Source: a virus
Virus record (IMG/VR): IMGVR_UViG_3300022690_000671
Location: 15,948 to 79,947 of that record
Strand: one strand, 5' to 3'
DNA length: 64,000 nucleotides
A model generated the notes under the pieces. The model searched no databases, had not been told where the DNA came from, and saw nothing but the letters and a program-made list of their open reading frames with translations. Both the position numbers and the translations under genes were made by a program. This document shows, one piece after another, positions 2,744 to 60,917 of the stretch; position 1 is the stretch's first letter, and each line of letters starts with the position of its first letter.

Positions 2744-2769
2744 ATTAAAAGATTTAAAGGTTAGAAATT

Positions 2770-3426
2770 ATGAGTTGCCCTGTAGTTACTATTATCACCG
2801 GCATCATTGCTGTTGCCGATTTGAGAATCATAATGGGAGATCCTACGCTTGATCAAGCTGAAATAGGATGGATGTCCAATGATATGTTATGTAACATCAT
2901 TCAGGAACATCATGATGCATTAGTAGAAGAGACCGATCATATTATTGGGTCGTTGGTCATGGAAGGTCGTAGTCCTGGACCGCCGGAAGTTTTTGAAGTC
3001 GTGGCTTTTACAGATGCAAACTCAACAAACCATCCTAATATAGCCAATGCCGTTGTTGCGGCCACAAATTATCCCTGGTCCACTTTTGCATACGTTACTA
3101 CAACTGGGGCAACTTTAGATTTTGATCCTGGTTTTCTTCGAACAGTAAAGACTTCTCCAGTAGGCGTTGTACGAAATAGATTTACACTTCAGGATAGAGA
3201 AATATTCTGGATCCCTGATGGTCTGGCCATTGAGATTTACTTACCTAATCTCACACTTTTAAGAAACTTTCACGCATCAGGTGAAATGATTAGACGAACA
3301 AACGAGTCTATCAAACAAGATGCATTTAGAGCACTACAACGTCGCATTGCTGAAGGTGCTCGGCAAGAGGGTACGTTGTTCGAAACAGATCGCCAACTCG
3401 GTGAACTGGATGAATTTATTCAATAG
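2770..3426 (+). CDS. Putative virion protein
   Basis: 218-aa ORF in the structural operon. Confidence 0.45.
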   Translation: MSCPVVTIITGIIAVADLRIIMGDPTLDQAEIGWMSNDMLCNIIQEHHDALVEETDHIIGSLVMEGRSPGPPEVFEVVAFTDANSTNHPNIANAVVAATNYPWSTFAYVTTTGATLDFDPGFLRTVKTSPVGVVRNRFTLQDREIFWIPDGLAIEIYLPNLTLLRNFHASGEMIRRTNESIKQDAFRALQRRIAEGARQEGTLFETDRQLGELDEFIQ

Positions 3427-5057: not shown

Positions 5058-5915
5058 ATGGAATTTATAATTGATATCAAAAATAGAATGGGCGTGTATA
5101 CCATTACCAATTTGGTGAATCGAAAGGTATATTTTGGATCTACCACTGTGTGTTTACATAAACGTATGATTCGTCATCTTTCTAGGTTAAAAAGTAAAAA
5201 GCATCGTAACAAATATCTTCAACGTTCATTTGACAAATATGGCGAAGAAAATTTTTATTTTGAGGTTTTAGAAATTGTTGACAAAAAAGAAGATGTTAGA
5301 ACACGAGAAGCGTTTTGGTTAAATGCTTTTTGGGGTAGCGGAAGAATATATAATCTAGTTAAAGTTGATGGTTATAATGTAGGAGATAAACCGTCAAACT
5401 ATTTAAGCGAAAAATATCAAGGCGAGGAACTTATTGATCCGGATGGTAATATTATCTTGTTTGAAGGAACTTGTGCTAATTTCGCAAGGAAACATGACAT
5501 TTGCGCTACCGGATTATATAGATTATTCAATGGGATAAGTCGTCACAGTCAAGGATGGTCTCTTAAAAAACACAACCTTCCATCTTTCGTTTCTCCCGAA
5601 GGAGTTATTTATGATCGTATTTATAATATTGCCTTATTTGCGAGAAAACATAATTTGAACAAAAGTTCATTACAACAACTGGTTCGTCATGAAATAAAAT
5701 ATCATAATGGGTGGACATTGGTGGGGAGTTATTTACCTACTTTGATTTCACCAGAAGGTAAAATATTCGAGAGAGTTTGCAATTTAAGTTCATTTGCTAA
5801 AAAGAATAATTTATCGGGATCTATGTTAAGTAGTATGATTCTTGGTAATCAACGAACACACAAAGGTTGGACTTGCGTTAATCCTAAAACAAAAAAAATC
5901 ATTCTACAGGATTAA
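5058..5915 (+). CDS. Free-standing GIY-YIG homing endonuclease with repeated C-terminal DNA-binding modules
   Basis: GVYTITNLVNRKVYFGST, R..H, E..W and YN motifs. Three repeats of (S/D)P(E/D)G...FA.K..L...H.GW. Confidence 0.9.
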   Translation: MEFIIDIKNRMGVYTITNLVNRKVYFGSTTVCLHKRMIRHLSRLKSKKHRNKYLQRSFDKYGEENFYFEVLEIVDKKEDVRTREAFWLNAFWGSGRIYNLVKVDGYNVGDKPSNYLSEKYQGEELIDPDGNIILFEGTCANFARKHDICATGLYRLFNGISRHSQGWSLKKHNLPSFVSPEGVIYDRIYNIALFARKHNLNKSSLQQLVRHEIKYHNGWTLVGSYLPTLISPEGKIFERVCNLSSFAKKNNLSGSMLSSMILGNQRTHKGWTCVNPKTKKIILQD

Positions 5916-11707: not shown

Positions 11708-14700
11708 ATGGAAAATCAAGAGTTATTAGACCTTCTCCAAGCGATCATAGATCGCCAACCAGAAGGCCCCGCCGATATCGCTCGTCCACAGGACGAAGCT
11801 GCGGCCCCAGAACCATTAGAAATTCTTCCTCAACCAGGAGTATCAACAGCAGAACAACTTGCTGCGGCCCCAGAACCATTAGAAATTCTTCCTCAACCAG
11901 GAGTATCAACAGCAGAACAACTTGCTGCGGCGACAACTCAGGAAGAGGCAGATATTCTTGAACGCCGAGTTTCCGAAGAAAGATTTCAAGAAACAGCATC
12001 TCTCCAAGATTTTCTGAGAAGAAAATCTGAAGGACCATTAACGAGGGTAACAGGACCAAGAGAAGTACAAGAAGAAGATAATCCTGTTGTTGCTCTTCTC
12101 GGAGCTATTGATAAACGTACACAAGAAGACGAAGGCTTCTTTAACGATTTACTTTCGGGACTTTCTGAAGGTAGTCGCATCGTTGTTAGTGATGCTGCAC
12201 GAAATTTTGGATTTCAAGATTTCGCCAATCGATTAGAAGAAACTGCTCCAAGGGAAAGAACAACGACACCCGCCGCAGCCATTGGTAGAGCTATTGTTGG
12301 TGGAACTAAATTCTTCATAGAAGGAGGTTTAAGTCTTGCTTTGGGTCCTGTTTTAGGTGGTTCGTCTCTTGAAGAACAATTTGGTTTTGATCCTGGAGAA
12401 CAACGCGATATTCTAGATGAGATTCGTCAAGTAAAAACAAGACCTGATGATTTTACTGAAGAACAAGTTACGGATCTTGTTAATAGACGAGATGCCGCTC
12501 TTCGTAATACACAAATCTTTGAAGCTCGTCAAATTCTCTCTGAACTGACGCCTGAAGGAACCGGAATCGATGATTTCCTTGAAGGATTCGAACGTTCAAA
12601 GTTTACGATATTAGCTAATGTGGCTGCTGCTTTTGGTGATATAGATGACTTTGAAACGGCAAATAGGTTGCGAGAAATAGCATCGACAGAACAATTCGAT
12701 GCCCAAAGCGCCTATGCTACGGCGGGTGAAATTGGAGCGCAGAGTATTCCTTCTGCTGCTGCTCTTCTCATAGGAGGCCCTGTTGCTGCTGGTCTCATGG
12801 GCGCGTTTTATTTTACCCAAGGTCTTGGTAGTGGACGTACCGTATACAGAGACATCAAGGAAAAGACGGGAGAAGAAGTCAAATTCATTGAAGAAATGAC
12901 TCTGGGCATTGGGTTTGGTTTGGCTGAAATGCTAACTGAACGTTTTGGTCTTAAAGTTCTCGAAAATATTAGTACAAAGTTGGCGTTTGAACTTGGGGAA
13001 AAAGCACTTCTTACACAAATAAGAAAAGGTACACTTACTCAAGCACAAATAGTAGCAATGAGCAAATGGACCGTTGCAACGATGGGCGCAGAGGCATATG
13101 AGGAAGCAGTTAACTCAGTTGCCCAGACCACAATGATTTCCATGTTTGATCCTGAAACGGGCGTAATGGATCAAGGATTATGGGACTTTACCAAGGATTT
13201 AACTGAAGATGCACTAATTAGTGCGGCGGGTGGTGCGTTGGGTGGTGGTTTTGTCGGCCCCGCTGCTAGATTTCGTGGTCGCCAAAATATTAGAAATGCT
13301 CGTCGGGAGTTAAATGAAGCATCAGATGATGAACTCTTTAACGTACTTCAGGATGAGAATGTTAATGAAGGTATTCGCGGTGTAGCAGAAGAAATTTTCA
13401 ATAGTCGTTTGGCTGGACAAGCCCCAACGGTTGACGGCGCTAGACTACCTACGCCTCAAATGACGCCAGAATTTCGTGAGGAGTTTACTGCCGCAGCAAA
13501 CGAAGCGTCTTCAGCAGATTTACAACGAGGTCTTTTAGATGGTCGGTTTACCGGAGAACAAACTGACATTATTATAGGAATTCTTGAACAAAAACCTTCG
13601 GAAGAAGCTCCTGTACGCTTTGGTCCTGAACGAGTTAGAGAACAACGCCGCCGATTTGCGGAAACCCTGGAAGAGGCGGAACGTTTAGGTCAACCCGTTG
13701 AAGAATTAGAGCCTCGTGTTGGTATTCGTACTCAAGTTCCCGGTACGGAGCGTATTGTGCGGCCCGGTGCTGTATTAGAAGGTGCGATTGATATTGAAGC
13801 CGCAAGGCAAGGCGCTGAAATAGTAGATGCTGAAGAGGCAGTTGTAAACCAAGAAAATGCAATTCAGATTTTCAATTCATTTATTGATGCAACAAATCTT
13901 GTAGAGGAAGAAAAAACTAGATTTAAAAATGCCATAATTTTAGCAGATGTTGCAGGTAGACGTGGCACAGAAGAAGAACTACGTTCAAGAGGTATTCTTA
14001 GTGGAGATCCCGGTAGTCCTGTTATTACTATCGGGGATCAAACATATGAAGGTGATACCGCAAAAGAAATGTTGGGCACGTTTCGGATTGGTGCGGTAAC
14101 AGTAGGGTCAAAAGATCAGTTGCGTAATATTTTTCTATTGGCCAATGTTGACGAAACAGACGTACGTGATGAAATATTCCACGCATTTATGGATTTCGCT
14201 CCTGGTGAAGTTAAGCGAGACGCGATTAATGCCTTTAACGAAGAATTCGACACTACATTTAAGACGTACTCGGAGGGACGTGAACGTATGGCCAGGGAAT
14301 TCGCCAATCATTTAGGTGGTATACGTCGTACAGAACGGGGCGGATTCCTTCGTGGCTTGTTCGATACACATAACAGAGCGTGGAGACAAACTATTAATCC
14401 GTTCAAACGCGGAGATGTTGCTGAACAAGTACAGACTGGAGCATTTACAGATCTTCTTCTCAAGATAGGACGAGGTGAGGTTGCTGATCTTGTACAACCT
14501 GGTATTGTTGAGGAAATTGTAGAAGAAGCGGCAGAACCACAAGAAGCGGAAATCCGTCAGGTTATTAACGAAGATTCTGATCGTAGAGCAGATGTTCTTC
14601 GTGAGATCGAAGAAGAAGGACGCCCCTTTGGTATCGGTGAAGTTGCGTTTCAAGCATTAGCACGAGGAGAACCTACAGCGACATTTTTTGCTGAACCAGG

Positions 14701-17700
14701 TGTTGTAGAAGGTGAGGAAGCTATTGAAGGCGAAGCCGCTGTAACACTAACCCGCGAACAATTCTTGGAGCGCTTAACGAACGAGGAAAATATTCGTCGT
14801 TTGGCTCAGAATCAGGCTAATTTAGAACAAAGAACAATTACCGTTCAGATAGATCCCGGTGCAGCGCCAGAGATCTTTACGCCTACGAAGCTACGTGTGC
14901 CTCGACCTGGTCCCGTAACGGAAGCGGAGCGTCAGGAGACCCTGGCAGAGGAACGTATCGCTCGGACGCGACAGCAGCAGCTACAGCGCGTGGAGGAGGC
15001 TGCTACGGTGGCGACGGAGGACCCGTTAACTGCTCTTCGAGAAGCCATAGCCAATCAGGACGTTAATCGTATAGCAGAAATTGTCGATATTAACCCAGAT
15101 GCGTTTGAAACTGCTGATCGACAAAGTCTAATAGAGGAAGCAGAAGAACAAGGTCCAGGTGTTGCGGCATTTGTAGAAAGTCAATTAGCCTTTCCTACGG
15201 AAGCGGTTGAACGTGAGCCTACTCAACTAAGAGTTCCGGTAACACCACAGGTAGATGTTCAGGAAGAAGCCGTACGCGCAGAATCAGCACAGCGTGTCTC
15301 AGAGCGTAATAAACTCGAAACACAACGCACAGAACTTATTAATCAATTTAACGCATCTGAACAATCTGTTCAGGACGCATTGGCCGCCTTTGATGAAAAA
15401 TTTCCAACTTCAACTTCAGCACAAATATTGCAAACTAAGACATCTTTGGAGCAAGGCGAAATACCTGCACCTCTCACAAGAGTCAACCGAAACAACACCA
15501 CGTTGGTCGCTGTTCGTGATGCTATTCAGCGGCTCAATGATGTAAACGATCAGTTAGAACAAGTTGAAACTACTATTGGTGATGTCGAAGGTCGTATGAC
15601 TGGTCTAGAACTCGCCGTAAGTCCAGAAGGCACTACCCCAGAAGAACGAGACGAAATAGCAGCAATTCAGGCGTTACGTCTAGATGAAAACCAGGAAGTT
15701 TCACTCATTCGTCAAGTGTTGGGGCGTCAGTTTGTGACTGATAAAGTCTCGTCAAAATCAGTTGTCGACACAGAAAACGGCACATTTAGGATTGATTTAT
15801 ATCAGGACTTCCGTAATCCCGGACAATCAATAGCTTTTGTTGAGGGCACAATCGTTGAAGATGGCGACGATCCTCATATGCAAATTACAAGTCGTGGAAC
15901 CGAACGTGGTTTCCGTGGTCGAGGGTTTGGTTCGCAACTTCTAGATGAGGCTTTTCAAGAAGCTACGTTCAGAAATATTCCTCTACGAAGCGACAACAAC
16001 GTTTCCGCAGCGGCAGTACGTACATTCCGACGCTTTGGTGAACAAAGCAACGTTGATCTGGTTCAGTCTGATAATACAACAGAACTTCCAGACGGATCTT
16101 TCTTCCTTGCGGGGGATAATCCTAATTACGTTTTCCAACTTACTGTCTCTAGTGACGATCCGCTCCCTCCGGACTTCTTTGGAGAAGACACGCCCCTGGT
16201 AGAAAACGTTGAAGAAGCCGAAGAACAATTCAATGAAGCTACTGCTACACCAGACGAGGATACGACACTGGAAACTGAAGAAAACGTAGTGCGTTTGCGT
16301 ATGGAAGACGAACTTCGTAAGACAAGTGTAGACTTGCAGGGTCCTATTCCATCTGTAGTACGTCGCGACGATCCCAAAGAAGGACAAGAAGATACTATTC
16401 CTGATGGTGTTCAAAGTAGCGAAGAATTTGCTCAATTCTTTGCCGATACCGTAAGAGCAGAAGATGGTGGGGCTCAAAATGTAGAGGATCCTCTTAATGC
16501 TTCGGTAATGGATACAGAAGAACACGAAAGTATTTACGAGACCTACGAAAGCTTTCAGGGTAATTTCGACACTCATATTTCAACCAGTATTCCTGGATTT
16601 GTTGACGCTCAAGTTCGTGTAGTAGATGCTCTAAGTAAAATACTTGAAGAAGGTTCCGAAGTGCTTGATATAGGCGCTGGGGAAAACACATTCCTCAAAA
16701 CGCTACAGGTAACAAGTAGAGCAAATGATCGAAGAATTGAAGGTTTAGGTATTGATTCATCAGCAGCTATGAGAGATGCGGCTAAGAAGCGTCGTGTTCG
16801 TGGAATCAGATTCCGACTAAGTGCGTGGGGCGAGTCTTTTGTAGATCCGGACACAGGACGCAGAGTTAAAGTGTTCGAGGCTGATGATGGAACATATGAC
16901 CTTGTATATGAGGGTATGACCTTTCAGTTCATTAGCGATGATCGCAGTGGGCAGTTAGATGAAGTTGTTCGTATAATGAAGGACGATGGTCTTTTTGTGA
17001 CGTTAGAGAAATTTAATCAACAAAATGAAGATACCTATTTCCAACAGGAAAAAGCCAAAGACGCATTTAAGCTCCTATTCTATGAGCAGAGTGATATAGA
17101 TACCAAGAAAAAAACTGTTCTTGGTAATGCCGCGTCTCGTGAAGGTATGCGTAGCAATATGGTAGATCAGACGACATTCGAGAATTTACTTCTCGACCGT
17201 TTTGAACATGTCGCCCAAATATGGTCATCTGGAAACTTCAGTGGCTACATTGCAACAAATGACAGAGCCAAATTCGATGCGTTTATTTCAAACCTAAGTT
17301 CGACGAATAGTGACTTTGCTGTTAAGCAAACGCCTCATTTAATAAGCGATAGCCCTGCCCAACGCGATGGACTTAATACTGCCCAGCGCACCCAGGAACA
17401 AGAAGTTGAAACTACATTACAAGGAACTCCTGTTGTGGCTCAATGGACCAAGCAAGAGACAGGGCGATACACACACGAAATAGACGGATCTGTTTGGGAG
17501 ATTAAACTAGAAGAGGGCGATTGGAACACAACTCGCGATGGCGTTTCAGTACTCGATCCTACTCGTACACTAAGAGAAGCTAAAACTCTGGTGTCAGAAG
17601 CTATTAATCTCACTCGTAATGATGCACTTCAAGATGATGGCGATTTGATTCAATTTAATCCTCTTAGTCTCCCTGATAATGTAGTCGTTATCGATACAAA

Positions 17701-20700
17701 CACTGATCTTTCGAGAGGTCATATAGGAATAAACGATAGTGACGAATATTTTGCGGACCACATGGGTCATGTTTTCCGTTCTCCTATTGGTAACAGTGTT
17801 GATGAAATTACTCATTATCGTAGAGGTGCGATACTTGTCGGAAAGGTCGAAGATGCAAAAGTAGGACAATTGTTAGACGAAAACAACGTGGAACCGGGCG
17901 ATATTGACGATATTGATCTTCTAGGTCATGAGGTTTGGTCTTCGCTTGTCGAACAACAAGGAGATACACCAGAACCATTAGCAATAGATCCTCTTGAAAT
18001 TACTGAGTTGGCCCTGCGTGGACAAAGAAGCTTCTTACTTGATCTAGGAGGTGAGTTACGTGGTCAATTTCAATCTCCCGGACTTAAAAAGGCTCTTCAA
18101 GCACTTGAAAGAAACGAACGCCCCCAAGAAATACGCTCCATAGCTGAAGGCAATGAGGAGTTAGAAGATTTCAACCGTAGACTCAAAGACTACGCTGCTC
18201 TATGGGATCAACGTGAGGCCATTTTGAACCCTATTACTCCTCTTCGCGATTCTCAGGGTAATCCTGATTGGGTAACAGCAGAGATTCTTATGTTAGATGA
18301 CGATATCAATGAGATCTCTATTGATGATGATAATACGGTTGTTGGTTTTGTTGAAAACGAGAATAGCGAAACGCTTTTTTACAGACGCAACCTCGCCGAT
18401 CAGTGGGAATCTGTAGAAGAGATCACGGAAGAAGAACATGGTAAGGCCCTAGAAGTCGCAGAGAAACGTTTGATGACTATGCGCAATGAAGGCACTGTTT
18501 TCACAATCAACGGCCAAGTTGTTGCAGATCTCAAAGTTCAATCTGCTTCGAAGAAACGTAAAACTGCTGAAACTGCTGCTATTAAAGCAGGGGAAAAGTA
18601 TAAGGGTAAGGCCGAGGCCGCACTAAGAGCGAAAGCTGAATTGGCGTTAAGTATTGTACCAGATGCAATGACTCCCAGCGGGGGACCTGCACTGCGTACT
18701 TTTGTGCGCTTGGTTAACGACTATAGAACTGACGTTGAATCCTATCTCAGGGCAGAAGATGCGTATCACGAGGCAAATATTGGTTTAGAAGAAAACCCTG
18801 AAGACGAGATTAATGACAACGGTCGTGGATTTCGTAGTTTCCGTAAGGACATAGAAGCATATTTCAGTGGTAAAGGTATTGCCATATTTGATGGTAAGGA
18901 TCCTTCTGATCTCGCGAATCGTAGTCTTCAAAAGATGATTCATCAGGAATCTATGGCGAGAGTGAGACTTGAAGAAAACACAACTGCCCCAGAACTAGAC
19001 GAAGAAATTCAACGTCAGATATCTGATGGTGTGGTTAGGGGTTTGAGTCTAACTGAAATTCTCAATGAACTACCAAAACAGAATCCTCAATCTGTTGAAA
19101 ATCTGTACAATGTATTAGCCTCATCCATAATTGGTGTTGATGAGGATATTGATTTTGAAGATCCTCACCTGGACATTAATGACATAGTATCGTATTCTAT
19201 GTCATCGCCATCGCCTCGTGTTCGTGAATCAAGAGCACGGCGCGTAATATCTTGGTTTAAACCTAGTACTCCTAATATACACCGTCGAAATGTTATATCT
19301 ACCTCGTTTCGTCGTCTCACATATCAAGCTGCGAAATACCCTGGCGCAGTGATGAATATTGCTCGTAAAGTGTATGCTTCTCCTGAAAAAAGATTAAGGG
19401 TAGGTGGAGTTCCTAGAACTTTATTTGAAGCAAGAGAATTCGAAGAAGAGAAATGGTTTACTAAATATCTTGATATTCAAGAAGATGCTGATAGGTGGAT
19501 GAAGAATAATGTTCCTATTGGAAACAGAGAAAAAGCATGGGGACGTATTGGTGCATTACAGCGTCAACCAAGTCTCGCAACTGCGACAGATCGCGATCAA
19601 GCATTATTGGGATTTGCAAATCAATTGCATAACCTGATGGAGAAATTTGGCAAATACTTGAGTGATGAAAAAAACGACGATTTCAACCTTCTTTCTGAAG
19701 CCCAACTTATCCAGTTTGATCCTGTAAAGGGAACGCGTTACTTTCCTCGTACCTGGAATGCTATGGAGATGGAGAGAAGAGAGTCGCAGTGGAAGGAAAT
19801 CCTTCGTCGACAATCGCTTCCTATTTTCCGTAAGCGCATAGAAGAAAAACGGAAGGAATTAAATGCCGAACTTCTTGAGGCTGAAGCTGATCTTCAAAAA
19901 GCAATAGATAAGGATTCTGATTCCAGAGCCTCAAAAAGAGGTAGAGACCTCGTCGATATCGTTAAAAATAATTTACAATCTCTTGATGGAACCCTTGACG
20001 AATTTATCGATCAAATATTCAATAAGATTACAAAGGGCGATACCTTTGCTTATGATAAGTGGTTATTTAGCGACAAGAGTCGTCTTATAAGGGAAATGCT
20101 TGATACTTTTCCTAATGCTCCTCGTGGTATCCACGCCAAACAGCGTAAGTTATGGTGGATAAACGAAAACGAATTTGCACAAGCTAATTTCTTGGCTGAT
20201 GATCCGCGTGATGCGTTACCTACGTATCTAAGAAACTTTATTCGTCAAAGAGAATATATTAGACGTTTTGGTCGCAGTAATCAAGAACTTGAGATTACTG
20301 CTAAGGAAATGGAAATTATCGGTAAGGCCAAAGGTTATGATTCGAAAACAATTAAAAGCGACATAGAAGAATTCAAACGAATAATGGAGGGTCTTGCCGG
20401 AGTCTTGCATATCGAAAATATTGCAAGATATCACGGTGCTGATAAAGTTATTCGTTTGAGTCATACACTATCTGTTATGTCCGCGCTAACCTTTACGGGC
20501 GTCACGTCATTTATTGAAACCGCTGCGATTCCTTTAAGATTTGGTTTTGAAGCAGCGGCGTTAGGACTTACAGCACTTCCTGGCTTTGCCAAGGAGAAAA
20601 TGGGTGTACCAGTAAGAGCCTTTATGAAGGGTATTGGTATTATGGTACCAAAACACTTTGGGCGTAGTCAAATTATGGAAATGGGTAGAATGGTGGCTGT

Positions 20701-21760
20701 TATTTCCCACCATACTATTAATACACTTATTGACGAACGGGCTCTTGGTTATGCTTTAGATGACACTCAACCCAACTCAAAAGCAGCTAAATATTCTCGC
20801 AAGTTAATTAGAGGATTTTATAAAATTAATTTAGTTGCTCCAATTACAGAACTTCAGAGAGTAATGTCGGCTGTAGCTGCTCAAAGACATATTACCAGAT
20901 TATTTCGTAAACCGCGCAGTAAACTAACTACCAGAGAATTGGATTTACTCGAAATCCTTAATCTTAAAAATGATTTTGATCGTCTCCGAGAAGTCTGGCG
21001 CTCAAATAAAGCAAATTTGTTCAGAATTCGCGAACGTGAAAGTCAAGAAGATTTCGAGACGTTTCAAACAGCCATTTATCGTGCAGTTAATCAGGCAATA
21101 ACGAAACCCAACGCAGCAACTAAACCTGTCTGGGGTAATAGTCTTGATCCCATTCTTCAGGCAGTATATTCTTTGAAAAGTTTCTCTGATGGTTTTAGAG
21201 AAGGTGCCTTTGCTTTTTGGCTTGACCGTATGAGAAATGGAGATTGGCCCGAAAAATTCTCTATGATGGTGAGATTTTTAAATTTATTATTTGTTTCTTG
21301 GCTCACTGAATCGATCATTCGACCTGGAGTAAAAGTAATACTTGGTGCAGATGCTCAAGAACTAAAAGAAAGGGAAGAAAGAACAGGAAGACTTCTCAAC
21401 GCAATTGCTGTAATAGATAAGACAGGATTTACAGTACAAGGCAGTAACTTTCTTGGTGCATTTTATGCCTCTAAATATGGACGATCTCCTGAATCAGGTG
21501 TCGTAGGGCCTGGAGTAACTGCTGTGTCAGATGTTGCCAAAGGATTTTACGTTTCGCTTGATAGAGGCGACCCTGCTTTTTTATGGAATGCTTTGTACAA
21601 TAGCTACGTTCCAGGAGCAAAACTTCCATTCCTCAAAGATTTGGCAACCATCGAACCGGGCAAGTTTAAAGTTGATGTTCCGGCCCTACTTGGTATCGAA
21701 AAGGAATCTACTGGAGGTGGTCGACGCCGTAGTAGAACACGTCGTAGTAAAGAACGTTAA
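11708..21760 (+). CDS. Giant polyvalent internal virion/DNA-ejection protein with GNAT and class I SAM-methyltransferase-fold (CmoA-like) domains
   Basis: 3350 aa with Gly/Ala-rich hydrophobic segments near the N-terminus. GNAT motif A (FRGRGFGSQLLDEAF, ~15900). MTase motifs FDTHISTSIPGF, VLDIGAGE, GIDSSAAM, FQFI, LEK, IWSSGNF (~16550-17260). Confidence 0.75.
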   Translation: MENQELLDLLQAIIDRQPEGPADIARPQDEAAAPEPLEILPQPGVSTAEQLAAAPEPLEILPQPGVSTAEQLAAATTQEEADILERRVSEERFQETASLQDFLRRKSEGPLTRVTGPREVQEEDNPVVALLGAIDKRTQEDEGFFNDLLSGLSEGSRIVVSDAARNFGFQDFANRLEETAPRERTTTPAAAIGRAIVGGTKFFIEGGLSLALGPVLGGSSLEEQFGFDPGEQRDILDEIRQVKTRPDDFTEEQVTDLVNRRDAALRNTQIFEARQILSELTPEGTGIDDFLEGFERSKFTILANVAAAFGDIDDFETANRLREIASTEQFDAQSAYATAGEIGAQSIPSAAALLIGGPVAAGLMGAFYFTQGLGSGRTVYRDIKEKTGEEVKFIEEMTLGIGFGLAEMLTERFGLKVLENISTKLAFELGEKALLTQIRKGTLTQAQIVAMSKWTVATMGAEAYEEAVNSVAQTTMISMFDPETGVMDQGLWDFTKDLTEDALISAAGGALGGGFVGPAARFRGRQNIRNARRELNEASDDELFNVLQDENVNEGIRGVAEEIFNSRLAGQAPTVDGARLPTPQMTPEFREEFTAAANEASSADLQRGLLDGRFTGEQTDIIIGILEQKPSEEAPVRFGPERVREQRRRFAETLEEAERLGQPVEELEPRVGIRTQVPGTERIVRPGAVLEGAIDIEAARQGAEIVDAEEAVVNQENAIQIFNSFIDATNLVEEEKTRFKNAIILADVAGRRGTEEELRSRGILSGDPGSPVITIGDQTYEGDTAKEMLGTFRIGAVTVGSKDQLRNIFLLANVDETDVRDEIFHAFMDFAPGEVKRDAINAFNEEFDTTFKTYSEGRERMAREFANHLGGIRRTERGGFLRGLFDTHNRAWRQTINPFKRGDVAEQVQTGAFTDLLLKIGRGEVADLVQPGIVEEIVEEAAEPQEAEIRQVINEDSDRRADVLREIEEEGRPFGIGEVAFQALARGEPTATFFAEPGVVEGEEAIEGEAAVTLTREQFLERLTNEENIRRLAQNQANLEQRTITVQIDPGAAPEIFTPTKLRVPRPGPVTEAERQETLAEERIARTRQQQLQRVEEAATVATEDPLTALREAIANQDVNRIAEIVDINPDAFETADRQSLIEEAEEQGPGVAAFVESQLAFPTEAVEREPTQLRVPVTPQVDVQEEAVRAESAQRVSERNKLETQRTELINQFNASEQSVQDALAAFDEKFPTSTSAQILQTKTSLEQGEIPAPLTRVNRNNTTLVAVRDAIQRLNDVNDQLEQVETTIGDVEGRMTGLELAVSPEGTTPEERDEIAAIQALRLDENQEVSLIRQVLGRQFVTDKVSSKSVVDTENGTFRIDLYQDFRNPGQSIAFVEGTIVEDGDDPHMQITSRGTERGFRGRGFGSQLLDEAFQEATFRNIPLRSDNNVSAAAVRTFRRFGEQSNVDLVQSDNTTELPDGSFFLAGDNPNYVFQLTVSSDDPLPPDFFGEDTPLVENVEEAEEQFNEATATPDEDTTLETEENVVRLRMEDELRKTSVDLQGPIPSVVRRDDPKEGQEDTIPDGVQSSEEFAQFFADTVRAEDGGAQNVEDPLNASVMDTEEHESIYETYESFQGNFDTHISTSIPGFVDAQVRVVDALSKILEEGSEVLDIGAGENTFLKTLQVTSRANDRRIEGLGIDSSAAMRDAAKKRRVRGIRFRLSAWGESFVDPDTGRRVKVFEADDGTYDLVYEGMTFQFISDDRSGQLDEVVRIMKDDGLFVTLEKFNQQNEDTYFQQEKAKDAFKLLFYEQSDIDTKKKTVLGNAASREGMRSNMVDQTTFENLLLDRFEHVAQIWSSGNFSGYIATNDRAKFDAFISNLSSTNSDFAVKQTPHLISDSPAQRDGLNTAQRTQEQEVETTLQGTPVVAQWTKQETGRYTHEIDGSVWEIKLEEGDWNTTRDGVSVLDPTRTLREAKTLVSEAINLTRNDALQDDGDLIQFNPLSLPDNVVVIDTNTDLSRGHIGINDSDEYFADHMGHVFRSPIGNSVDEITHYRRGAILVGKVEDAKVGQLLDENNVEPGDIDDIDLLGHEVWSSLVEQQGDTPEPLAIDPLEITELALRGQRSFLLDLGGELRGQFQSPGLKKALQALERNERPQEIRSIAEGNEELEDFNRRLKDYAALWDQREAILNPITPLRDSQGNPDWVTAEILMLDDDINEISIDDDNTVVGFVENENSETLFYRRNLADQWESVEEITEEEHGKALEVAEKRLMTMRNEGTVFTINGQVVADLKVQSASKKRKTAETAAIKAGEKYKGKAEAALRAKAELALSIVPDAMTPSGGPALRTFVRLVNDYRTDVESYLRAEDAYHEANIGLEENPEDEINDNGRGFRSFRKDIEAYFSGKGIAIFDGKDPSDLANRSLQKMIHQESMARVRLEENTTAPELDEEIQRQISDGVVRGLSLTEILNELPKQNPQSVENLYNVLASSIIGVDEDIDFEDPHLDINDIVSYSMSSPSPRVRESRARRVISWFKPSTPNIHRRNVISTSFRRLTYQAAKYPGAVMNIARKVYASPEKRLRVGGVPRTLFEAREFEEEKWFTKYLDIQEDADRWMKNNVPIGNREKAWGRIGALQRQPSLATATDRDQALLGFANQLHNLMEKFGKYLSDEKNDDFNLLSEAQLIQFDPVKGTRYFPRTWNAMEMERRESQWKEILRRQSLPIFRKRIEEKRKELNAELLEAEADLQKAIDKDSDSRASKRGRDLVDIVKNNLQSLDGTLDEFIDQIFNKITKGDTFAYDKWLFSDKSRLIREMLDTFPNAPRGIHAKQRKLWWINENEFAQANFLADDPRDALPTYLRNFIRQREYIRRFGRSNQELEITAKEMEIIGKAKGYDSKTIKSDIEEFKRIMEGLAGVLHIENIARYHGADKVIRLSHTLSVMSALTFTGVTSFIETAAIPLRFGFEAAALGLTALPGFAKEKMGVPVRAFMKGIGIMVPKHFGRSQIMEMGRMVAVISHHTINTLIDERALGYALDDTQPNSKAAKYSRKLIRGFYKINLVAPITELQRVMSAVAAQRHITRLFRKPRSKLTTRELDLLEILNLKNDFDRLREVWRSNKANLFRIRERESQEDFETFQTAIYRAVNQAITKPNAATKPVWGNSLDPILQAVYSLKSFSDGFREGAFAFWLDRMRNGDWPEKFSMMVRFLNLLFVSWLTESIIRPGVKVILGADAQELKEREERTGRLLNAIAVIDKTGFTVQGSNFLGAFYASKYGRSPESGVVGPGVTAVSDVAKGFYVSLDRGDPAFLWNALYNSYVPGAKLPFLKDLATIEPGKFKVDVPALLGIEKESTGGGRRRSRTRRSKER
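11798..11931 (+). repeat. Perfect in-frame 63-bp tandem repeat (2.1 copies; AAAPEPLEILPQPGVSTAEQL)
   Basis: Identical units at 11798-11860 and 11861-11923. Confidence 0.95.
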
Positions 21761-23078: not shown

Positions 23079-24707
23079 TTACGTTTTCCCAGTCATTAAA
23101 TCAGCAGCAGAAGGTTCGGTCGAGATCATTCCTAGTTCCCTCCGAACATCCGTATAATCCTGTTTAAGGATCTTAGTAATAGATGCTTCGCTTACATCGT
23201 GATCTTTGGCTATTTTCTTTTTACCACCTTTCTGACGAGGAACATAGTTATCCTGGATAGAGATCTGCTCCCAAACGTTAAGTCTTGCAATCTCTAAATG
23301 TTGGTATTTGGTCAAGATCAAAATCTCGGCCTCAAACGCTTCACTATCTTCCTCTTTAATGAGACTGGGACGTATGCCTTTCCGTTCAAGGGCTTTGAAA
23401 CGATTCTTGTCGAATATAGGCCCGGTGCGTTTTTGCCACTGAGTAAGTGTGAGACAAGACTGGAAACCGATGAAATGTTCATCGAGCAACACGATCTCTT
23501 TGGCTTGAAAGGATCTACCATCTTTAGGAACACGGAGAATGATTGCGACTTCGATAGGTTCCCACGGGACTTCATCAAAGATGTCGAAGGCCACATATTT
23601 TTTTTCTTCTTCATAGGCAAAGACATATGCAGCTAATTGTAAATAGTATTCCGGCCAAATCCTTTTACTAGATTTCCAGTCTACCATTGCTAATCTACCA
23701 TCGACATAGGCTAAGAAGTCGAAGGTTCCAGAATAATTGTATTTGCGGCTATATACTTTGCGTTCTGTATGGATAGGAATAACGTCGTGATTTTTCCACC
23801 ACTTGGTAAATGCAATAATGGCAGATTCGGCCTCGTCATTGTCAGGTAATTCGGGATAAAGTGACGGATTATCCTCAGTTCCACCCAACACTGAAATTTT
23901 AACCTTGATAAATTTTTCTATCCATTCATGAACGATATGACCTATATCTCCAGCCTTTTCCAGAGTAACGTTTCTTGCCTTTTCGGCAGTTTGTAGCATT
24001 GCTTCCCATTGAACTTTATCGTAGTACAATGTAGGATCTACGTGATCGCGAAGCCAATTGGTCGTCTCTTTCACGGCCCACGGAATAAGACCCGGTTTAT
24101 TGACTATTCGAGTAATGGATGTAGTTGAGGTTACTAGCTCTCCCGTAGATTCCAATCGATACTGATGAGAATCGTCATCATATAGTAGTACAACTTCTCC
24201 ACCATATAAGACGTGTCGTTCTGCTTGATCTTTATTAAACTCAGGAATATATTCCGTCCGAGCCCACACTCTCATTTTTTCTATACCATCTATTAACCAT
24301 TCATAAGATCTACCATCAATTCGATCTCCAGAATATACATAGTAATGATCAAACGGAAGTTCCGACTCGGCCAATAGCTTCAACAACTCCTCAGTCTGTT
24401 TGACCTTGTTGAGTATTGCTATCAGAATGCTTTTCTGAAATCCTCCGGGATTGCGTCTAGATTCATTGTCGGTCATTATTCGACCAACACGTTTAGCCTC
24501 ATAGCCGTGAAGATTCATGAGTTGGTCGCGATCAGGATGAGAACTACGCAACCAGTACCAATATCCTTCTATACTACGAAAAGCACCGTCTGGACAAATG
24601 AACGGAGCGTCAGCAAAGTTCGACATCCATTGACCTATAGCAGTGTTACCTTTACTGTATATGTTGATATGATCGACGCCATCGTTCTCAGGTAAGAAGG
24701 TGCTCAT
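23079..24707 (-). CDS. Fusion of an N-terminal NADAR-like domain and a PD-(D/E)XK phage exonuclease
   Basis: N-terminal MSNFADAPF..DG.F.SIEGYW resembles T4 gp30.3-type NADAR. C-terminal STTSI, G..VHEWIE, E.KVYS..Y.YSGTFD, VDWKSS and LQLAAY are nuclease motifs. Confidence 0.75.
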   Translation of the reverse strand: MSTFLPENDGVDHINIYSKGNTAIGQWMSNFADAPFICPDGAFRSIEGYWYWLRSSHPDRDQLMNLHGYEAKRVGRIMTDNESRRNPGGFQKSILIAILNKVKQTEELLKLLAESELPFDHYYVYSGDRIDGRSYEWLIDGIEKMRVWARTEYIPEFNKDQAERHVLYGGEVVLLYDDDSHQYRLESTGELVTSTTSITRIVNKPGLIPWAVKETTNWLRDHVDPTLYYDKVQWEAMLQTAEKARNVTLEKAGDIGHIVHEWIEKFIKVKISVLGGTEDNPSLYPELPDNDEAESAIIAFTKWWKNHDVIPIHTERKVYSRKYNYSGTFDFLAYVDGRLAMVDWKSSKRIWPEYYLQLAAYVFAYEEEKKYVAFDIFDEVPWEPIEVAIILRVPKDGRSFQAKEIVLLDEHFIGFQSCLTLTQWQKRTGPIFDKNRFKALERKGIRPSLIKEEDSEAFEAEILILTKYQHLEIARLNVWEQISIQDNYVPRQKGGKKKIAKDHDVSEASITKILKQDYTDVRRELGMISTEPSAADLMTGKT

Positions 24708-27993: not shown

Positions 27994-30900
27994 TCATAAC
28001 GTCCGATGTTTTTTTGGTGGAACCAGGGATACGTGAACTCGCATACCAGCCTTTTTGGCGGTTTCTATCATATCCCTGGTTCCTCTTGAAGTTCCGTTCC
28101 ATACGGCAATAAGAGCAGCGCCATTCTTTCCAATAGAAGACATGGCCTTTTCCGCCATAAGTTGATTACGGTTATGCCCCGCCAAAGCATTGTATGGTAC
28201 TCCTAAAACGTTGCGTTTCATAAGAACGTTATCTACTTCGAAATTGTTCCATTGCGCCGCTTCTTCATGGTGGTCGATTCCTTCTCTAACTGCATATTCC
28301 TTGGCCGCAGCGTCAACTCCCTTAGCCCCGCCCTGAATAATTTTGGCAATAACATTACCAGAGGGATCACTATCGGCCTTTTCTATTAACTTCAAAAAAG
28401 GAGCCCCCGCAATGGCGCGTTCTATCCAAAAAATATCATTTATGTCACGCCCCCCTGCTATGATAACTTGCATAGGTTTACGTTTCACATCGCGTTGGAC
28501 AATCTCTATGCTATTATAATCGAAATCAGGATCCGTTTGTTCACTAAACAACATACGCCATCCCTCTTCAGTAAAGAATATCCCGAACTTCTTCGCGGAG
28601 TCCATGAGTTTCTTTAAATACCAGTTCGTGTTTTCGTCTGGATTGTCAGGATCGTGTTCCTCGGCCCATTTGCTATGTTGAAAAGCACGTATCTTATACA
28701 CCTTCATTTCCTTGGGCGCGGCGCAATAGTGAGCAAAGCGGTCGCCTACCACCACCTTGTGTTTCCCCGATTCGTGTATTCTCTTGGCGACCTCATATCC
28801 AGCATCAGCGTTGCGTCCTCCGTTTCCAACGCCTAGTTTTACCTTCTTGTCGTAGAGACTCAGCGGATCCTTAACTGTGCTGCGTTTACAAAACTCGTCA
28901 ATTGTCCAGTCGGACGTAAAGACTTTTGTCCAATACCTCGTGTAAATTTCATGTACCTTTACAGGATCTCTTTCCAAAATGGCTGTGATGATCTCTACTA
29001 CGAACTCACGACGAAAAAGTTCGATCACGCGGCTCTTGAAGCTACCGCCTTTAATCTTTAGCCGACCCTCAACAAGAGCGTAATTCTTCTTACGTAACGA
29101 AAGCATAGAAGTTGCTCTTCCATCGAAACCAACTACGATTCCTGATGGCATACGTTTTGTCAGAGACTCAACCCAATCCCTGTCTCCCATAGGAAACGGT
29201 CCCTTGATATCATGTTTTAATTCAATAATGGCGACCGCCTTACCTTCTGGATGATCCTGGTTGTATACCCATTTAGGAGGAATACAAAGTGTTCCGTCCG
29301 TATTCTTACAGAGAATTCCACCTACTCCACCAACAAATGTTCCGTCTTCTGTAGAAATATCATAAACATCTAATCCTGTCTTTCTTTCAATCAAAGCTCT
29401 AACTTCACTTGACTCATATTTTATCCGCCGCGTTCCAGTAAGAGTGCCCAAACGTACAATTGTTTCTTTATCTTTTCTAACATGTACATTAATTCTATGA
29501 GATAACTCCAGATCTCTCATCAACCACCACATCCCAGCAGCAAGTATGTGAGACTTTGTTGTATATTGTCCAGTACCGTCTTTATAAAAATGACCATCTC
29601 CCTTCATAGCTCCGTCAAAAAAACCATGTTTCATTTCTTTTGATCCGTTCAAGACAACGGAAGGAACTTTCTTTTGATGAGTTGCTTCATCATAGAGAAG
29701 ATTATTCCATATATTATATTGTATTATATTGTAACCGCCAGTTGCTTTATTACATCCTGTGGATTTCATTGTATCGTAAACCATCATCCTGGTTCTATAG
29801 TATTTAAACGCAAGATCACAAACAAGTTGAAGCAAATCCTTATCTTTTTCGGCGCACGATACATTCGTCGACCAACCATTTGGTTTTCTTGAAACCCTGG
29901 ACGTAGAGCCTTCTGCTACCATAATACCCAGGAGCCAACCGTGTTCATAGTCTCCTTCTTCGTTGTTCGGTAAAATAGGCAAATCGATAATCTCAAGTTT
30001 ATCCCCTATAATCAAATCACGGGGTTTAACCATTTCTCCATCTTCACGAAAAAGGCTATGATCTTCAGTTACAACAACAGTACCACACATTGTTCTGACT
30101 TCAAGCATACGTTTATCTGTATTGTGACGCTTAGTATATTTGATAGGTTTCCATCCCGATCTAGTTAAGACTTCTATTCCATCATATCCATCAAAACGAC
30201 GTAATTCGTCCGAATCATGAAGAGTAGCTATAGACACAACATCAATATCATCGCCGCGACGTATGTAAACAGGTGTATAAGCAGCAACAGAGTCACAAGC
30301 TATAGGTTGTCCTCCATCTTTAATGATTTCACGAAGCATCTTTTTAAGAAGACCCTGACCTATGGTACATACACGATCTGCTTGAATAAAATCATTAAAA
30401 ATAAAGAAGTTAAAACCAAGTGCGCCATACATCGAGTTGCCTTGTATTTTATAAGCCGCTTGTTTATGATCTAACGACTCGTGTTCTTTCTTTCTACCTG
30501 TCAGAGGTTTACCATTTAAATCTTCTAAGGCTTTCATCTCGGCCTTAGTCGCCAAACGTAAATCTGTCAACTCTCTTAAAATCCTTGGGAACGTATTTAA
30601 CGTGTCGGTTGACGGTTTTACATCATAGTTGAGCATAATACTTGGATACAGAGACTCGACATCTGCATAAACTATGTTCTCGTAGACTCCTATTTTGAAT
30701 ATATCAGTATAACCACCAACTTCCATTCGACCCGCCTTGAATGTTGGTATGCTATGTCGTTTTTCCAGATATTCCCTTACCATGATGTGTTCTACCTTAG
30801 TTGCAGAACCTCCTCTGGCTATACGCTCATAGGTCATTGGAACCATCTGGCTCAACGCAAAATGACTTCCGCCGAGATGTTTACCAATGGATCTGGTTTC

Positions 30901-31932
30901 ATATACATCGTCTAGAGCATAACGCAGTACACGTTCAGGGTCTTCGTCCCAGGTCTTTGCTATTTGATCTCCCTGGATGTATTCACGATTTTCTGAGGCA
31001 AAACCAAAGTATTTAGCTGCACCTTTCAGGGTGTGATCTTGCATCGATCTTTTAACTACGTCAAACGCCAATACCAAGAAATATGTATCTATGATGTGTC
31101 TCCCAGCTATAGTCCAGGCCGGGTATTCTATCTGGCGTTCAGCGAAACGTATTTGTGTATCATAGAATGTGGGAACGGATCCGTCTCGTCCTATGTTAAC
31201 CTCGATACCATAACGTTCGCACCTGGTCATCAGGTAAGGCATATCGAAACTCAGGAAGTTGTGGCCCTCGATAATGTCGGGGTCCAAAGCTTGAATGGTT
31301 TCGACCCATTCTTCCAACATTTCTTTTTCGGTATCAAACCTAATTGAATCTTTAGTGTGAACACCTTTTGGAGCAATATGAAAAACAACATCAAATCCTT
31401 TATTATCACACATAGATATGATAAAAATCTTATCGGTTTCTCTGGAAGCGTTAGGAAAACCTACCCTGCTATATGCCTCAATGTCGCACTGAAGACGATG
31501 GACATCATCAAACCCCCTGCCCTTAAACATGGTATTACCAGTCTGCATAAGCCACTGAGACTCAGCAGATGCGATCATGTAGATCTCTTTACGTTTCCAT
31601 TCCCTCGTTTTAAGATTCTTAAGCACTTGTTTTTTAGCTCCCCACATCTCAAACCAGTTGTTAAACACAACAAGCACCTGGTAATAGTTGTCGCCCTCAA
31701 GATTTACCCAACGATACTGTTCGCGAGGAAAGTTATTGAGAAGATTAATATCTTTGAGCCAGAAAAACGGATAAAAGTTTTCCAAAGTGAATTCTGTACG
31801 ACCAATATGATTATTCCACACCTGCATCTTGTTACCATCAGGATGCATCGCCAAACCGACAATACCCTGTCTGTCAGACTTACCGTAGAGTAGTGCAGAT
31901 TGTATAGGGTCGTCTTTTAATTCCACTCTCAA
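27994..31932 (-). CDS. polB: Family B DNA polymerase with 3'-5' exonuclease, intein and C-terminal SLOG (YspA/DUF2493-like) domain
   Basis: Exo I DIE, Exo II GHNFLSFDMPYL, Exo III YALDD; motif A DVESLYPSIM, motif B K...NSMYG, motif C ACD|TDG split by the intein, KKNY. C-terminal IIAGGRD...IQGGAKGVD...AGHNRN..MA...WNGTSRGTRDMI. Confidence 0.93.
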   Translation of the reverse strand: MRVELKDDPIQSALLYGKSDRQGIVGLAMHPDGNKMQVWNNHIGRTEFTLENFYPFFWLKDINLLNNFPREQYRWVNLEGDNYYQVLVVFNNWFEMWGAKKQVLKNLKTREWKRKEIYMIASAESQWLMQTGNTMFKGRGFDDVHRLQCDIEAYSRVGFPNASRETDKIFIISMCDNKGFDVVFHIAPKGVHTKDSIRFDTEKEMLEEWVETIQALDPDIIEGHNFLSFDMPYLMTRCERYGIEVNIGRDGSVPTFYDTQIRFAERQIEYPAWTIAGRHIIDTYFLVLAFDVVKRSMQDHTLKGAAKYFGFASENREYIQGDQIAKTWDEDPERVLRYALDDVYETRSIGKHLGGSHFALSQMVPMTYERIARGGSATKVEHIMVREYLEKRHSIPTFKAGRMEVGGYTDIFKIGVYENIVYADVESLYPSIMLNYDVKPSTDTLNTFPRILRELTDLRLATKAEMKALEDLNGKPLTGRKKEHESLDHKQAAYKIQGNSMYGALGFNFFIFNDFIQADRVCTIGQGLLKKMLREIIKDGGQPIACDSVAAYTPVYIRRGDDIDVVSIATLHDSDELRRFDGYDGIEVLTRSGWKPIKYTKRHNTDKRMLEVRTMCGTVVVTEDHSLFREDGEMVKPRDLIIGDKLEIIDLPILPNNEEGDYEHGWLLGIMVAEGSTSRVSRKPNGWSTNVSCAEKDKDLLQLVCDLAFKYYRTRMMVYDTMKSTGCNKATGGYNIIQYNIWNNLLYDEATHQKKVPSVVLNGSKEMKHGFFDGAMKGDGHFYKDGTGQYTTKSHILAAGMWWLMRDLELSHRINVHVRKDKETIVRLGTLTGTRRIKYESSEVRALIERKTGLDVYDISTEDGTFVGGVGGILCKNTDGTLCIPPKWVYNQDHPEGKAVAIIELKHDIKGPFPMGDRDWVESLTKRMPSGIVVGFDGRATSMLSLRKKNYALVEGRLKIKGGSFKSRVIELFRREFVVEIITAILERDPVKVHEIYTRYWTKVFTSDWTIDEFCKRSTVKDPLSLYDKKVKLGVGNGGRNADAGYEVAKRIHESGKHKVVVGDRFAHYCAAPKEMKVYKIRAFQHSKWAEEHDPDNPDENTNWYLKKLMDSAKKFGIFFTEEGWRMLFSEQTDPDFDYNSIEIVQRDVKRKPMQVIIAGGRDINDIFWIERAIAGAPFLKLIEKADSDPSGNVIAKIIQGGAKGVDAAAKEYAVREGIDHHEEAAQWNNFEVDNVLMKRNVLGVPYNALAGHNRNQLMAEKAMSSIGKNGAALIAVWNGTSRGTRDMIETAKKAGMRVHVSLVPPKKHRTL
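29302..30291 (-). mobile_element. Intein (330 aa) with LAGLIDADG endonuclease in PolB motif C
   Basis: Starts SVAAYTPV; block B VTEDHSLF; LLGIMVAEGS and FFDGAMKGDG; block F VYDISTEDGTF; ends LCKN followed by Thr. Confidence 0.92.
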
Positions 31933-58697: not shown

Positions 58698-58701
58698 TAT
58701 G

Positions 58702-58785
58702 TGGATGCGGTAGGATTCGAACCTACAAGCGTCATAGACATTCGGGTTACAGCCGAGTAGGAGCACCAGTTCTCCCATCGCATCC
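58702..58785 (-). tRNA. tRNA-Tyr(GUA)
   Basis: GGATGCG/CGCATCC acceptor; CTGTAAC loop; long variable arm. Confidence 0.88.
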
Positions 58786-58884: not shown

Positions 58885-58971
58885 TGGCGGAGAATGTGGT
58901 AGTCGAAACCACTTCACCTTTCGGTGGCCTCTGATTAGCAATCAGGCACATTACCGTTCTGTCAACTCTCC
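58885..58971 (-). tRNA. tRNA-Ser(GCU)
   Basis: GGAGAGT/ATTCTCC-GCCA; TTGCTAA loop; long variable arm CACC-GAAA-GGTG. Confidence 0.9.
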
Positions 58972-60572: not shown

Positions 60573-60917
60573 TGGTGGAGACGGAGGGTAACGATCCCTC
60601 GTGCTGAAAGTCGTCAGTAGTTGCCATCTACATGGATAGCACATCGTGGTGTGCGGCCATCTAACAGGTACTACGGTTGAACGTTGCTAAAGTGACACTG
60701 AGTTTCTTGATCTAAGCAACAAGATCGAGAACAGTGGACGGAATCATTGTGATTGCGGCAAGATCCCCTTCGGAATCTCCGCCGACGAAGTTGGTCTGAG
60801 CCAAGAATTCGTCGACCGTCATTTGTGATGTGTTTGCATCTATGGTTGGTAGGCTCTTTACCTACAAGCACCATGCAGCAAAGACTTCGATCTCTCAGTC
60901 GAATCCATTTCGTCCCC
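60573..60917 (-). ncRNA. ssrA: tmRNA (345 nt)
   Basis: 5' GGGGACG-AAATGGATTCGAC; 3' GAGGG-ATCGTTA-CCCTC-CGTCTCC-ACCA; G3:U70; ATAGAT-GCA resume context; tag ORF 60837-60712. Confidence 0.93.

Follow-up and report, generated by a model that had tools for sequence, protein, structure and literature searches.

CmoA, known from Escherichia coli (b1870; PDB 4GEK/4IWN), Haemophilus influenzae (YecO; PDB 1IM8) and phage S-B43 (SpCmoA), is a stand-alone dimeric enzyme of ~240 amino acids (aa) that converts S-adenosylmethionine (SAM) and prephenate into carboxy-SAM (Cx-SAM). Its SAM-contacting residues are Asp62, Gly64, Ser66, Asp89, Asn132 and Tyr39 (PMC3663124), and in the E. coli enzyme the Cx-SAM carboxylate is touched by Arg199 alone, a residue that the CmoA family conserves (PMC4482062, PMC3663124). 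The ylide-based carboxylation needs an apolar environment as well as the carboxylate-binding Arg (PMC10491745). In 2025, a phage CmoA was shown to supply Cx-SAM for DNA carboxymethylation, within a CmoA-CmoX-CmoY system (PMC12783734), in which CmoA has a gene of its own, of early or metabolic type, that adjoins those for a C5 DNA methylase homologue and a ligase. A second described system, the polyvalent proteins of Iyer, Burroughs, Anand, de Souza and Aravind (2017; PMC5512222), comprises giant proteins of conjugative elements and of phages, where they belong to the late module, that combine unrelated enzymatic domains and are predicted to be packaged and injected with the DNA as early effectors. 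Of all phage molecules, polyvalent proteins are considered the earliest to act upon infection, and few of their cargo enzymes have a known substrate. Here, we analyzed a window of 64,000 nucleotides (positions 15,948 to 79,947 of IMG/VR virus record IMGVR_UViG_3300022690_000671, a contig of 79,947 bp that is ~66% complete), in which a CmoA-like domain lies within a giant protein of 3350 aa.

The explanation that we favor, with moderate confidence, is that this element is a catalytically competent SAM-binding domain from a previously unnamed sister clade of CmoA, carried together with an acetyltransferase-like (GNAT) domain as a cargo module in the variable cassette of a polyvalent protein, delivered with the virion and acting on a small, probably anionic substrate. 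A separate, polyvalent-specific sister clade of CmoA with a changed active site appears to be undescribed.

Relationship of the domain to CmoA

Translation of positions 11708-21760 (+) gave a single open reading frame (ORF) of 3350 aa (P0002), in which positions 16520-17330 (+), the region of the original prediction, are stop-free. The core of the domain (P0001, 270 aa) spans 16520-17329 (+). The true domain is larger than 16520-17330 and covers ORF aa ~1571-1880 (16418-17347, +), comprising a conserved N-terminal helix, a Rossmann core, a helical lid and a beta6-beta7 hairpin. The claim that a CmoA-like domain is embedded in the giant protein held up, with agreement among the phage CmoA family phrog_4752, hhalign, a profile search of PDB sequences and the predicted fold, including its lid and N-terminal helix. 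Every motif quoted in that prediction was present in the translation of 16520-17330, and the counterparts were present in E. coli CmoA (L002:4703-5443). The homology to CmoA runs over the full length of the domain, and the motifs common to both are F..[MH]I..S.P.[YF], D[LI]G, Q-F, E-R, E-K, F-K, Y..E[IL]..K and N-F. The paired residues, CmoA first, are S35/S23, P37/P25, D62/D50, D89/D79, R143/R142, E164-K165/E163-K164, K198/K196 and N234-F235/N239-F240, together with Q136-F137, which bear the same numbers in both.

The profile searches differed in how closely they placed the domain. With Pfam, only a generic class I methyltransferase was found (Methyltransf_11, E 4.5e-7), and the NCBIfam CmoA model TIGR00740 aligned over positions 24-236 of 239 at 21.8 bits, below its equivalog cut-off of 193.3 bits. 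By comparison, phrog_4752 matched at E 1.2e-20 over profile positions 14-238 of 241; its scores were 340 bits for E. coli CmoA, 270 for an Erwinia phage homologue, 239 for the S-B43 enzyme and 74.8 for this domain. When a 17-member family profile was run against all PDB sequences, CmoA/YecO was the only protein found (3 chains, E 3-5e-6), the next-best match standing at 0.13 and CysG at E 0.68. A comparison by hhalign of the 151-sequence family alignment with E. coli CmoA gave 97.5% probability (E 8e-12) over CmoA residues 26-241 of 247, and the family hidden Markov model scored 58-62 bits on the S-B43 and S-CRM01 CmoAs versus 42 on that of E. coli. The ESM Atlas returned generic viral methyltransferase clusters only, with no functional lead. 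Judged by sequence, CmoA is the nearest known relative of the domain, and the resemblance is far beyond chance.

An AlphaFold2 model of the domain, made with a 36-sequence alignment, predicts a confident class I SAM-dependent fold (predicted local distance difference test [pLDDT] 94.6, predicted template modeling score 0.93). In the model, four helices between beta5 and beta6 form a lid, and the class I Rossmann fold carries a predicted CmoA-type lid of alpha2/alpha6/alpha7 that closes over the cofactor. A second model, of aa 1555-1885 (pLDDT 89.0), shows an extra helix at ORF aa 1571-1582. A ~25-residue insertion between beta3 and beta4 is absent from CmoA. Foldseek placed CysG/BelI first and CmoA at ranks 12-18; in an unbiased search CmoA ranked first, in an alignment of 221 residues that takes in the extra N-terminal helix. 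The alignments with BelI/CysG and MM_2633 start at model residue 63, versus 19 for CmoA, and the former have no match to that helix. The best structural match was not an unrelated methyltransferase devoid of the CmoA lid, an outcome that would have spoken against the prediction.

The BelI/CysG carboxyl O-methyltransferases and MM_2633 (PDB 9FCE, 9FCL, 9G0K, 3DTN), similar to the domain in fold, are small-molecule SAM enzymes with a closed active site and dicarboxylate substrates, and BelI/CysG are metal dependent, with a His-His-Asp calcium site (PMC11408123). Nevertheless, the sequence similarity of BelI/CysG to the domain is insignificant (E 0.68, against 3e-6 for CmoA).

To place the family with respect to orthodox CmoA, a small sample of nine true CmoAs was used as controls for the tree and for subtypes: E. 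coli CmoA and eight phage CmoAs (L085-L092). The controls are stand-alone proteins of 228-258 aa, and at least four are neighbors of a DNA cytosine methylase, the arrangement of the CmoA-CmoX-CmoY system. In a maximum-likelihood tree, 46 family members split from the nine CmoAs with a support of 1.0 and along a long branch. Going by this tree, the domain family is its own sister clade of CmoA and not orthodox CmoA. The controls themselves showed that Arg199 is not universal among true CmoAs. A first subtype combines Met31, Arg199 and Glu203 (E. coli, Erwinia, Alcaligenes, PaBG), and a second combines His31 and Arg203 with no Arg199 (S-B43, S-CRM01, Staphylococcus phage PhiSepi-HH3, Gordonia phage Evaa); the exception among the nine is BHU-1, with Arg at neither site. 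Since it belongs to the His31/Arg203 subtype, the validated S-B43 enzyme SpCmoA carries its Arg one helical turn later, a shift that goes along with a change from Met to His in the N-terminal helix.

Active-site signature and candidate chemistry

A search of 1.84 billion representative proteins yielded 516 clusters of the family at E<1e-3, 383 of them at <1e-10. From the best 150 of the 516 clusters, 151 domains were extracted and aligned, and the residue counts given here refer to these. At a pairwise identity of only ~35%, 35 positions are at least 90% conserved across the 151 domains. With respect to the SAM contacts of CmoA, Asp50, Gly52 and Asp79 are present in this copy; Ser66 is replaced by Gly54 (Ser in 145/151), Tyr39 by Phe27 and Asn132 by Gly132, a position held by Ser, Ala or Gly in the family.

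The original prediction had noted a Lys where CmoA has its key Arg, and the alignment bears this out, with K197 (ORF residue 1801) aligned to R199 in the lid-helix stretch K196-K197-K198-T199-V200-L201 (17105-17122, +). Position 197 is variable, being Ala in 30, Arg in 27, Gln in 21 and Lys in 19 of the domains. Position 201, aligned with the Arg of S-B43 CmoA, is Leu here and in 100 of the 151 (Gly in 23, Lys in 10, Val in 9). A conserved Arg is absent at both sites used by validated Cx-SAM synthases, that is, R199 in E. coli and the site four residues later in S-B43. The neighboring K196, aligned with CmoA K198, is Lys in 146/151. Two other residues are fixed or nearly so. His19 (ORF aa 1623; 16574-16576, +), His in 150/151, corresponds in the alignment to Met31 of E. 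coli CmoA and to the His of the S-B43-type phage CmoAs. Glu131 (ORF aa 1735; 16910-16912, +), at the end of strand beta4, is Glu in 151/151 and specific to the family; at this position each of the nine true CmoAs has Leu, Ser or Ala. These counts define a large family of CmoA-like SAM enzymes, found almost only in giant proteins, whose active-site signature is an invariant His19 and Glu131 and no carboxylate-binding Arg.

The invariant residues would sit where class I methyltransferases form the walls of their substrate pocket: on the N-terminal helix (H19), the end of beta4 (E131, M133, Q136, F137), the end of beta5 (K164), the lid helices (E177, K180, K184, K196) and the beta6-beta7 hairpin (N239, F240). 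The pocket is therefore likely to be of polar, basic character, and a His/Glu pair would stand next to the cofactor. Such a pocket, together with the lack of a carboxylate-binding Arg, makes methyl transfer likelier than orthodox Cx-SAM synthesis. The nearest structural relatives, CmoA, BelI/CysG and MM_2633, are small-molecule enzymes that act on dicarboxylates in enclosed pockets (PMC3663124, PMC11408123). In the proposed mechanism, the giant protein would enter the cell together with the DNA, and the domain would bind SAM under a closed helical lid, like CmoA, BelI/CysG and MM_2633. A small, probably anionic substrate would be held by the invariant K164, K180, K184, K196 and R142, and the family-specific H19 and E131 beside the cofactor may form a catalytic pair.

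Several observations weigh against this favored explanation. Nearly all other CmoA-conserved residues are shared by the domain (R143, E164, K165, K198, Q136, F137, N234, F235), which is closest to the His-type phage CmoAs, a group that includes a validated Cx-SAM synthase, and a Lys stands at the equivalent of R199 in this protein. Where H19, E131 and K197 would lie relative to the SAM methyl is drawn from the alignment and from general class I methyltransferase topology. Motif I reads LDIGAGENT here, differing from the family pattern S-E-G at two nearly invariant positions, a departure that could weaken SAM binding. Finally, the case for virion packaging and for injection with the DNA is one of analogy, plausible as the polyvalent-protein context makes it (PMC5512222).

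A true carboxy-SAM synthase, which on entry would turn host SAM and prephenate into Cx-SAM and so either feed host CmoB (for cmo5U) or a phage CmoX-type DNA enzyme or drain SAM from SAM-dependent defenses, is in our judgment unlikely. Homology over the full length and fold identity with CmoA speak for it, as do the N-terminal 'FD.HI..SIP' motif with the His of the S-B43 subtype, which the domain shares with SpCmoA, and the retention of most CmoA-conserved basic and acidic residues. The S-B43/S-CRM01 type is the closest to the domain, and SpCmoA is a validated, highly active Cx-SAM synthase (PMC12783734). Lys197 occupies the R199 site here, and Arg is found there in 27/151 members. However, Arg199 is the sole contact of the Cx-SAM carboxylate (PMC4482062, PMC3663124), and the family is variable at that site and has Leu at the site four residues on. 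The invariant Glu131 beside the cofactor would repel a carboxylate, the TIGR00740 score lies under the cut-off, and the family forms a separate clade in the tree. In addition, true phage CmoAs stand alone next to CmoX, whereas this domain lies inside a giant protein of the structural module with neither CmoX nor CmoY. Of the original prediction, the CmoA-like sequence and fold stand, and the carboxy-SAM synthase activity that it implied is weakened by the variable R199 site, the Leu at the S-B43 Arg site, the invariant Glu and the lack of a consistent CmoB or CmoX partner.

The search for such partners covered the whole 79.9-kb record and complete related phage genomes. As the original prediction had stated for the window, no CmoB partner was found: PF08003 is absent from the record, 66% complete as it is. 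The C5 DNA methylase family to which CmoX-type enzymes belong (PF00145) was not found in this 66% complete record either. CmoB was found in 0/5 complete related phage genomes and a C5 DNA methylase in 2/5; the latter counts for a synthase, and its absence from the other three and that of CmoB from all five count against one. A phage-borne CmoB or CmoX partner was rejected on these grounds, and a host partner is possible. The two C5 methylase genes (E ~1e-52) lie at G008:C1:41585-42685 and G009:C1:23642-24853, in complete phage genomes that carry the domain.

Because phage CmoA supplies Cx-SAM for DNA carboxymethylation, a virion-delivered sister clade would be an obvious place for new SAM-based counter-defense chemistry. 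In its strongest form, which we regard as doubtful, the domain would found a widespread virion-delivered family of the CmoA clade with new SAM chemistry at DNA entry, disarming SAM-dependent defenses or creating a cofactor before phage gene expression. Such chemistry might be Cx-SAM synthesis with an unorthodox carboxylate site or, alternatively, a different reaction that derivatizes or consumes SAM, in which Glu131 and His19 would act either on the methyl group of the sulfonium or on a small anionic metabolite.

Carriers, exchangeable cassette and delivery

The family is widespread, with at least 516 clusters at 50% identity and 124 IMG/VR contigs, and includes one cultured phage only (Panino). 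Its carriers are mostly giants, almost all of 1000-5700 aa (median 2465, largest 5697), and the domain has no fixed place along them. A word search found no stand-alone close homologue of 148-473 aa, and an exhaustive search found a few short forms, of 327-445 aa. When the whole ORF was compared by BLAST with 153 carriers, similarity was confined to aa ~1551-1900. ART-PolyVal was present in 8/16 scanned carriers, and other carrier domains were DUF7178, LPD38, LPD22, LPD23, InPase, Kinase-PolyVal (PF18762), GNAT, GGDEF and DUF3293. As minor observations among short carriers, DUF3293 occurred in four, one had a weak match to the S-AdoMet_lyase family (PF23780, E 4.7e-4), and in P0009 the CmoA-like domain (aa 1307-1566) was followed directly by InPase (aa 1622-1754).

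A single homologue of the scaffold was found, P0156 (3192 aa), which shares aa 283-945, 2179-2684 and 2765-3296 of the giant protein at ~29% identity. Its central region is unrelated, with LPD23 present and the CmoA-like domain absent. As P0156 keeps the scaffold and differs there, the central cassette, aa 946-2178 (14543-18241, +), is exchangeable. In this protein the cassette holds the CmoA-like domain and, ~130 residues upstream of it, a probable GNAT acetyltransferase domain at ORF aa 1372-1444 (15821-16039, +); the two also occur together in P0008. The GNAT match is weak (Pfam Acetyltransf_1, E 6.8e-4, 20.3 bits against a cut-off of 20.7 bits), and a motif A of the R-G-x-G-x-G type is present in the sequence. 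The conserved N-terminal segment, aa 283-945 (12554-14542, +), includes a hydrophobic segment at aa 346-370, and the C-terminal scaffold, aa 2179-2684 and 2765-3296 (18242-21595, +), includes another at aa 3186-3204, followed by a basic tail. Going by these sequence comparisons, the CmoA-like domain is an exchangeable module carried as cargo by giant polyvalent phage proteins.

The likeness to polyvalent proteins extends to several features. As in the proteins of that survey (PMC5512222), a giant late-module protein combines unrelated enzymatic domains, and cargo is swapped on a conserved scaffold, as seen between P0002 and P0156. At least two unrelated activities lie in one large phage polypeptide (with the GNAT match weak), and the domains are networked with recognized polyvalent domains. 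In contrast, the methyltransferases of the survey are EcoKI/TaqI-like DNA adenine enzymes of the DarB type, and the one here is CmoA-like; a CmoA or CmoA-like domain is not mentioned in its main text (PMC5512222). A literature search found no paper joining CmoA with polyvalent or virion proteins.

The cultured relative is CDS0069 of the Maribacter phage Panino (WZE63588.1, 1829 aa), which carries the same domain at 34% identity (E 1e-33). It is a large protein that ends the structural module, as here, but has half the size and shares only the domain. Panino is a ~77-kb podovirus with many tRNAs and a transfer-messenger RNA (tmRNA), as in this phage, and the late-module position of the giant ORF matches its layout (PMC11590407).

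With regard to delivery, the scaffold may be of the kind packaged in podovirus heads, by analogy, and entry of the giant protein with the DNA would follow from its polyvalent character. That the domain is active but not injected, serving a late role in the producing cell or in the assembling head on virion proteins, on the giant protein itself or on a metabolite, appears to us very unlikely. The position of the gene in the late module would suit such a role, and release of the giant protein from the capsid is a prediction. Nevertheless, the carriers hold hallmark polyvalent domains, which are predicted to be injected early effectors (PMC5512222), and the scaffold, with its hydrophobic segments and basic tail, stands at the position of podovirus internal or ejection proteins.

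For a catalytically dead domain, whether a structural spacer with a SAM fold or a module that sequesters SAM without turnover, we see hardly any room. The departure of motif I from the consensus would fit such a domain, and cargo domains of giant proteins can decay. However, this copy keeps 33 of the 35 conserved positions, including motif I Asp50, ribose-binding Asp79 and all putative active-site residues, and each of the two motif I variants can be found on its own in other members. Confidence in the model is very high, and the strong conservation over 516 clusters argues for a selected activity.

tRNA genes, database label and genome surroundings

The existence of the domain is not hidden, since databases label it 'tRNA methyltransferase' through PHROG 4752. 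The label stands on the related PHROG 4752 and on the Panino homologue, where the annotation of CDS0069 is an automatic PHROG label and the genome paper (PMC11590407) does not discuss the gene. It comes from the obsolete name of CmoA, which does not bind tRNA (PMC3663124, PMC4482062), and the model keeps the CmoA-type lid, which in CmoA blocks the region used for RNA binding by RNA methyltransferases (PMC3663124). For these giant proteins the label is misleading.

The window does contain many tRNA genes. ARAGORN called 15, all on the minus strand, between 48977 and 61244, among them the Ala-UGC, Thr-UGU, Pro-UGG and Leu-UAG genes that the original prediction had listed. The proposed link to tRNA wobble chemistry did not survive wider sampling. 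A tRNA gene was found within 10 kb at 2/80 related viral loci, and a whole-record scan with Rfam found none in 8/10 long related records, among them every one of the seven with a completeness of 95% or more. An association of the domain with tRNA genes was rejected on these counts, and there is no specific tie between the domain and the tRNA genes of this phage. Because most related records are without tRNA genes, the co-occurrence in this phage and in Panino looks incidental. A methyltransferase acting on the U34 family-box tRNAs of phage or host, on another nucleic acid or on the entering DNA, which the label and the many tRNAs and tmRNA of this phage and Panino would favor, is scarcely credible beside the origin of that label, the retained lid and the tRNA-free relatives; U34 anticodons are usual among phage tRNAs, and Pfam shows no nucleic-acid-binding or target-recognition domain adjoining the CmoA-like domain.

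Two discrepancies between the tRNA searches were observed. Rfam reports a tRNA at 58888-58971 that ARAGORN missed, and the tRNA-Tyr called by ARAGORN at 58701-58785 is not in the Rfam list. The tmRNA lies at 60573-60917 (-) (Rfam, 65.6 bits, E 6.5e-24) and was not called by ARAGORN.

On the plus strand, the giant ORF is the last gene of the structural (late) module. Upstream of it are the genes for both terminase subunits (small and large), the portal and the major head protein, and the module also encodes tail-fibre-like proteins. The polymerase, primase-helicase, exonuclease and tRNAs lie downstream of it on the opposite strand. PHROG and Pfam scans of the neighboring structural ORFs were mostly blank. 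No nucleotide similarity of the giant gene to known phages was found. The N-terminal 1559 aa of the protein had no match among phage proteins, and the C-terminal 1450 aa had one weak match only (E 3e-4), between the C-terminal scaffold and the C-terminal part of a 2441-aa 'peptidoglycan transglycosylase' of Microcystis phage Mae-Yong1326-1, a protein encoded at the same genomic position as the giant ORF.

A canonical HExxH peptidase motif was not found in P0002, where only DEIFH occurs, at ORF aa 821-825 (14168-14182, +), within DEIFHAFMDFAP. The motif is kept in the scaffold homologue P0156 (DEIFHAFMDYAP) and may be a degenerate metallopeptidase remnant; a GHExxH zincin-like motif is present in the alignment consensus of many other domain carriers.

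Three further ORFs of the window have an unusual position or architecture. The structural gene module contains an inserted ORF for a homing endonuclease of the GIY-YIG/HNH type (5058-5915, +; phrog_314, E 1.4e-24). In the exonuclease ORF at 23079-24707 (-), the exonuclease core is fused at its N-terminal side to a ~150-aa domain with a match to phrog_652 (function not assigned, E 3.3e-40). Likewise, the family B DNA polymerase ORF at 27994-31932 (-), of 1311 aa, is extended at its C terminus by sequence similar to phrog_289, 'GTP-binding domain' (match over aa 1147-1308, E 2.6e-20).

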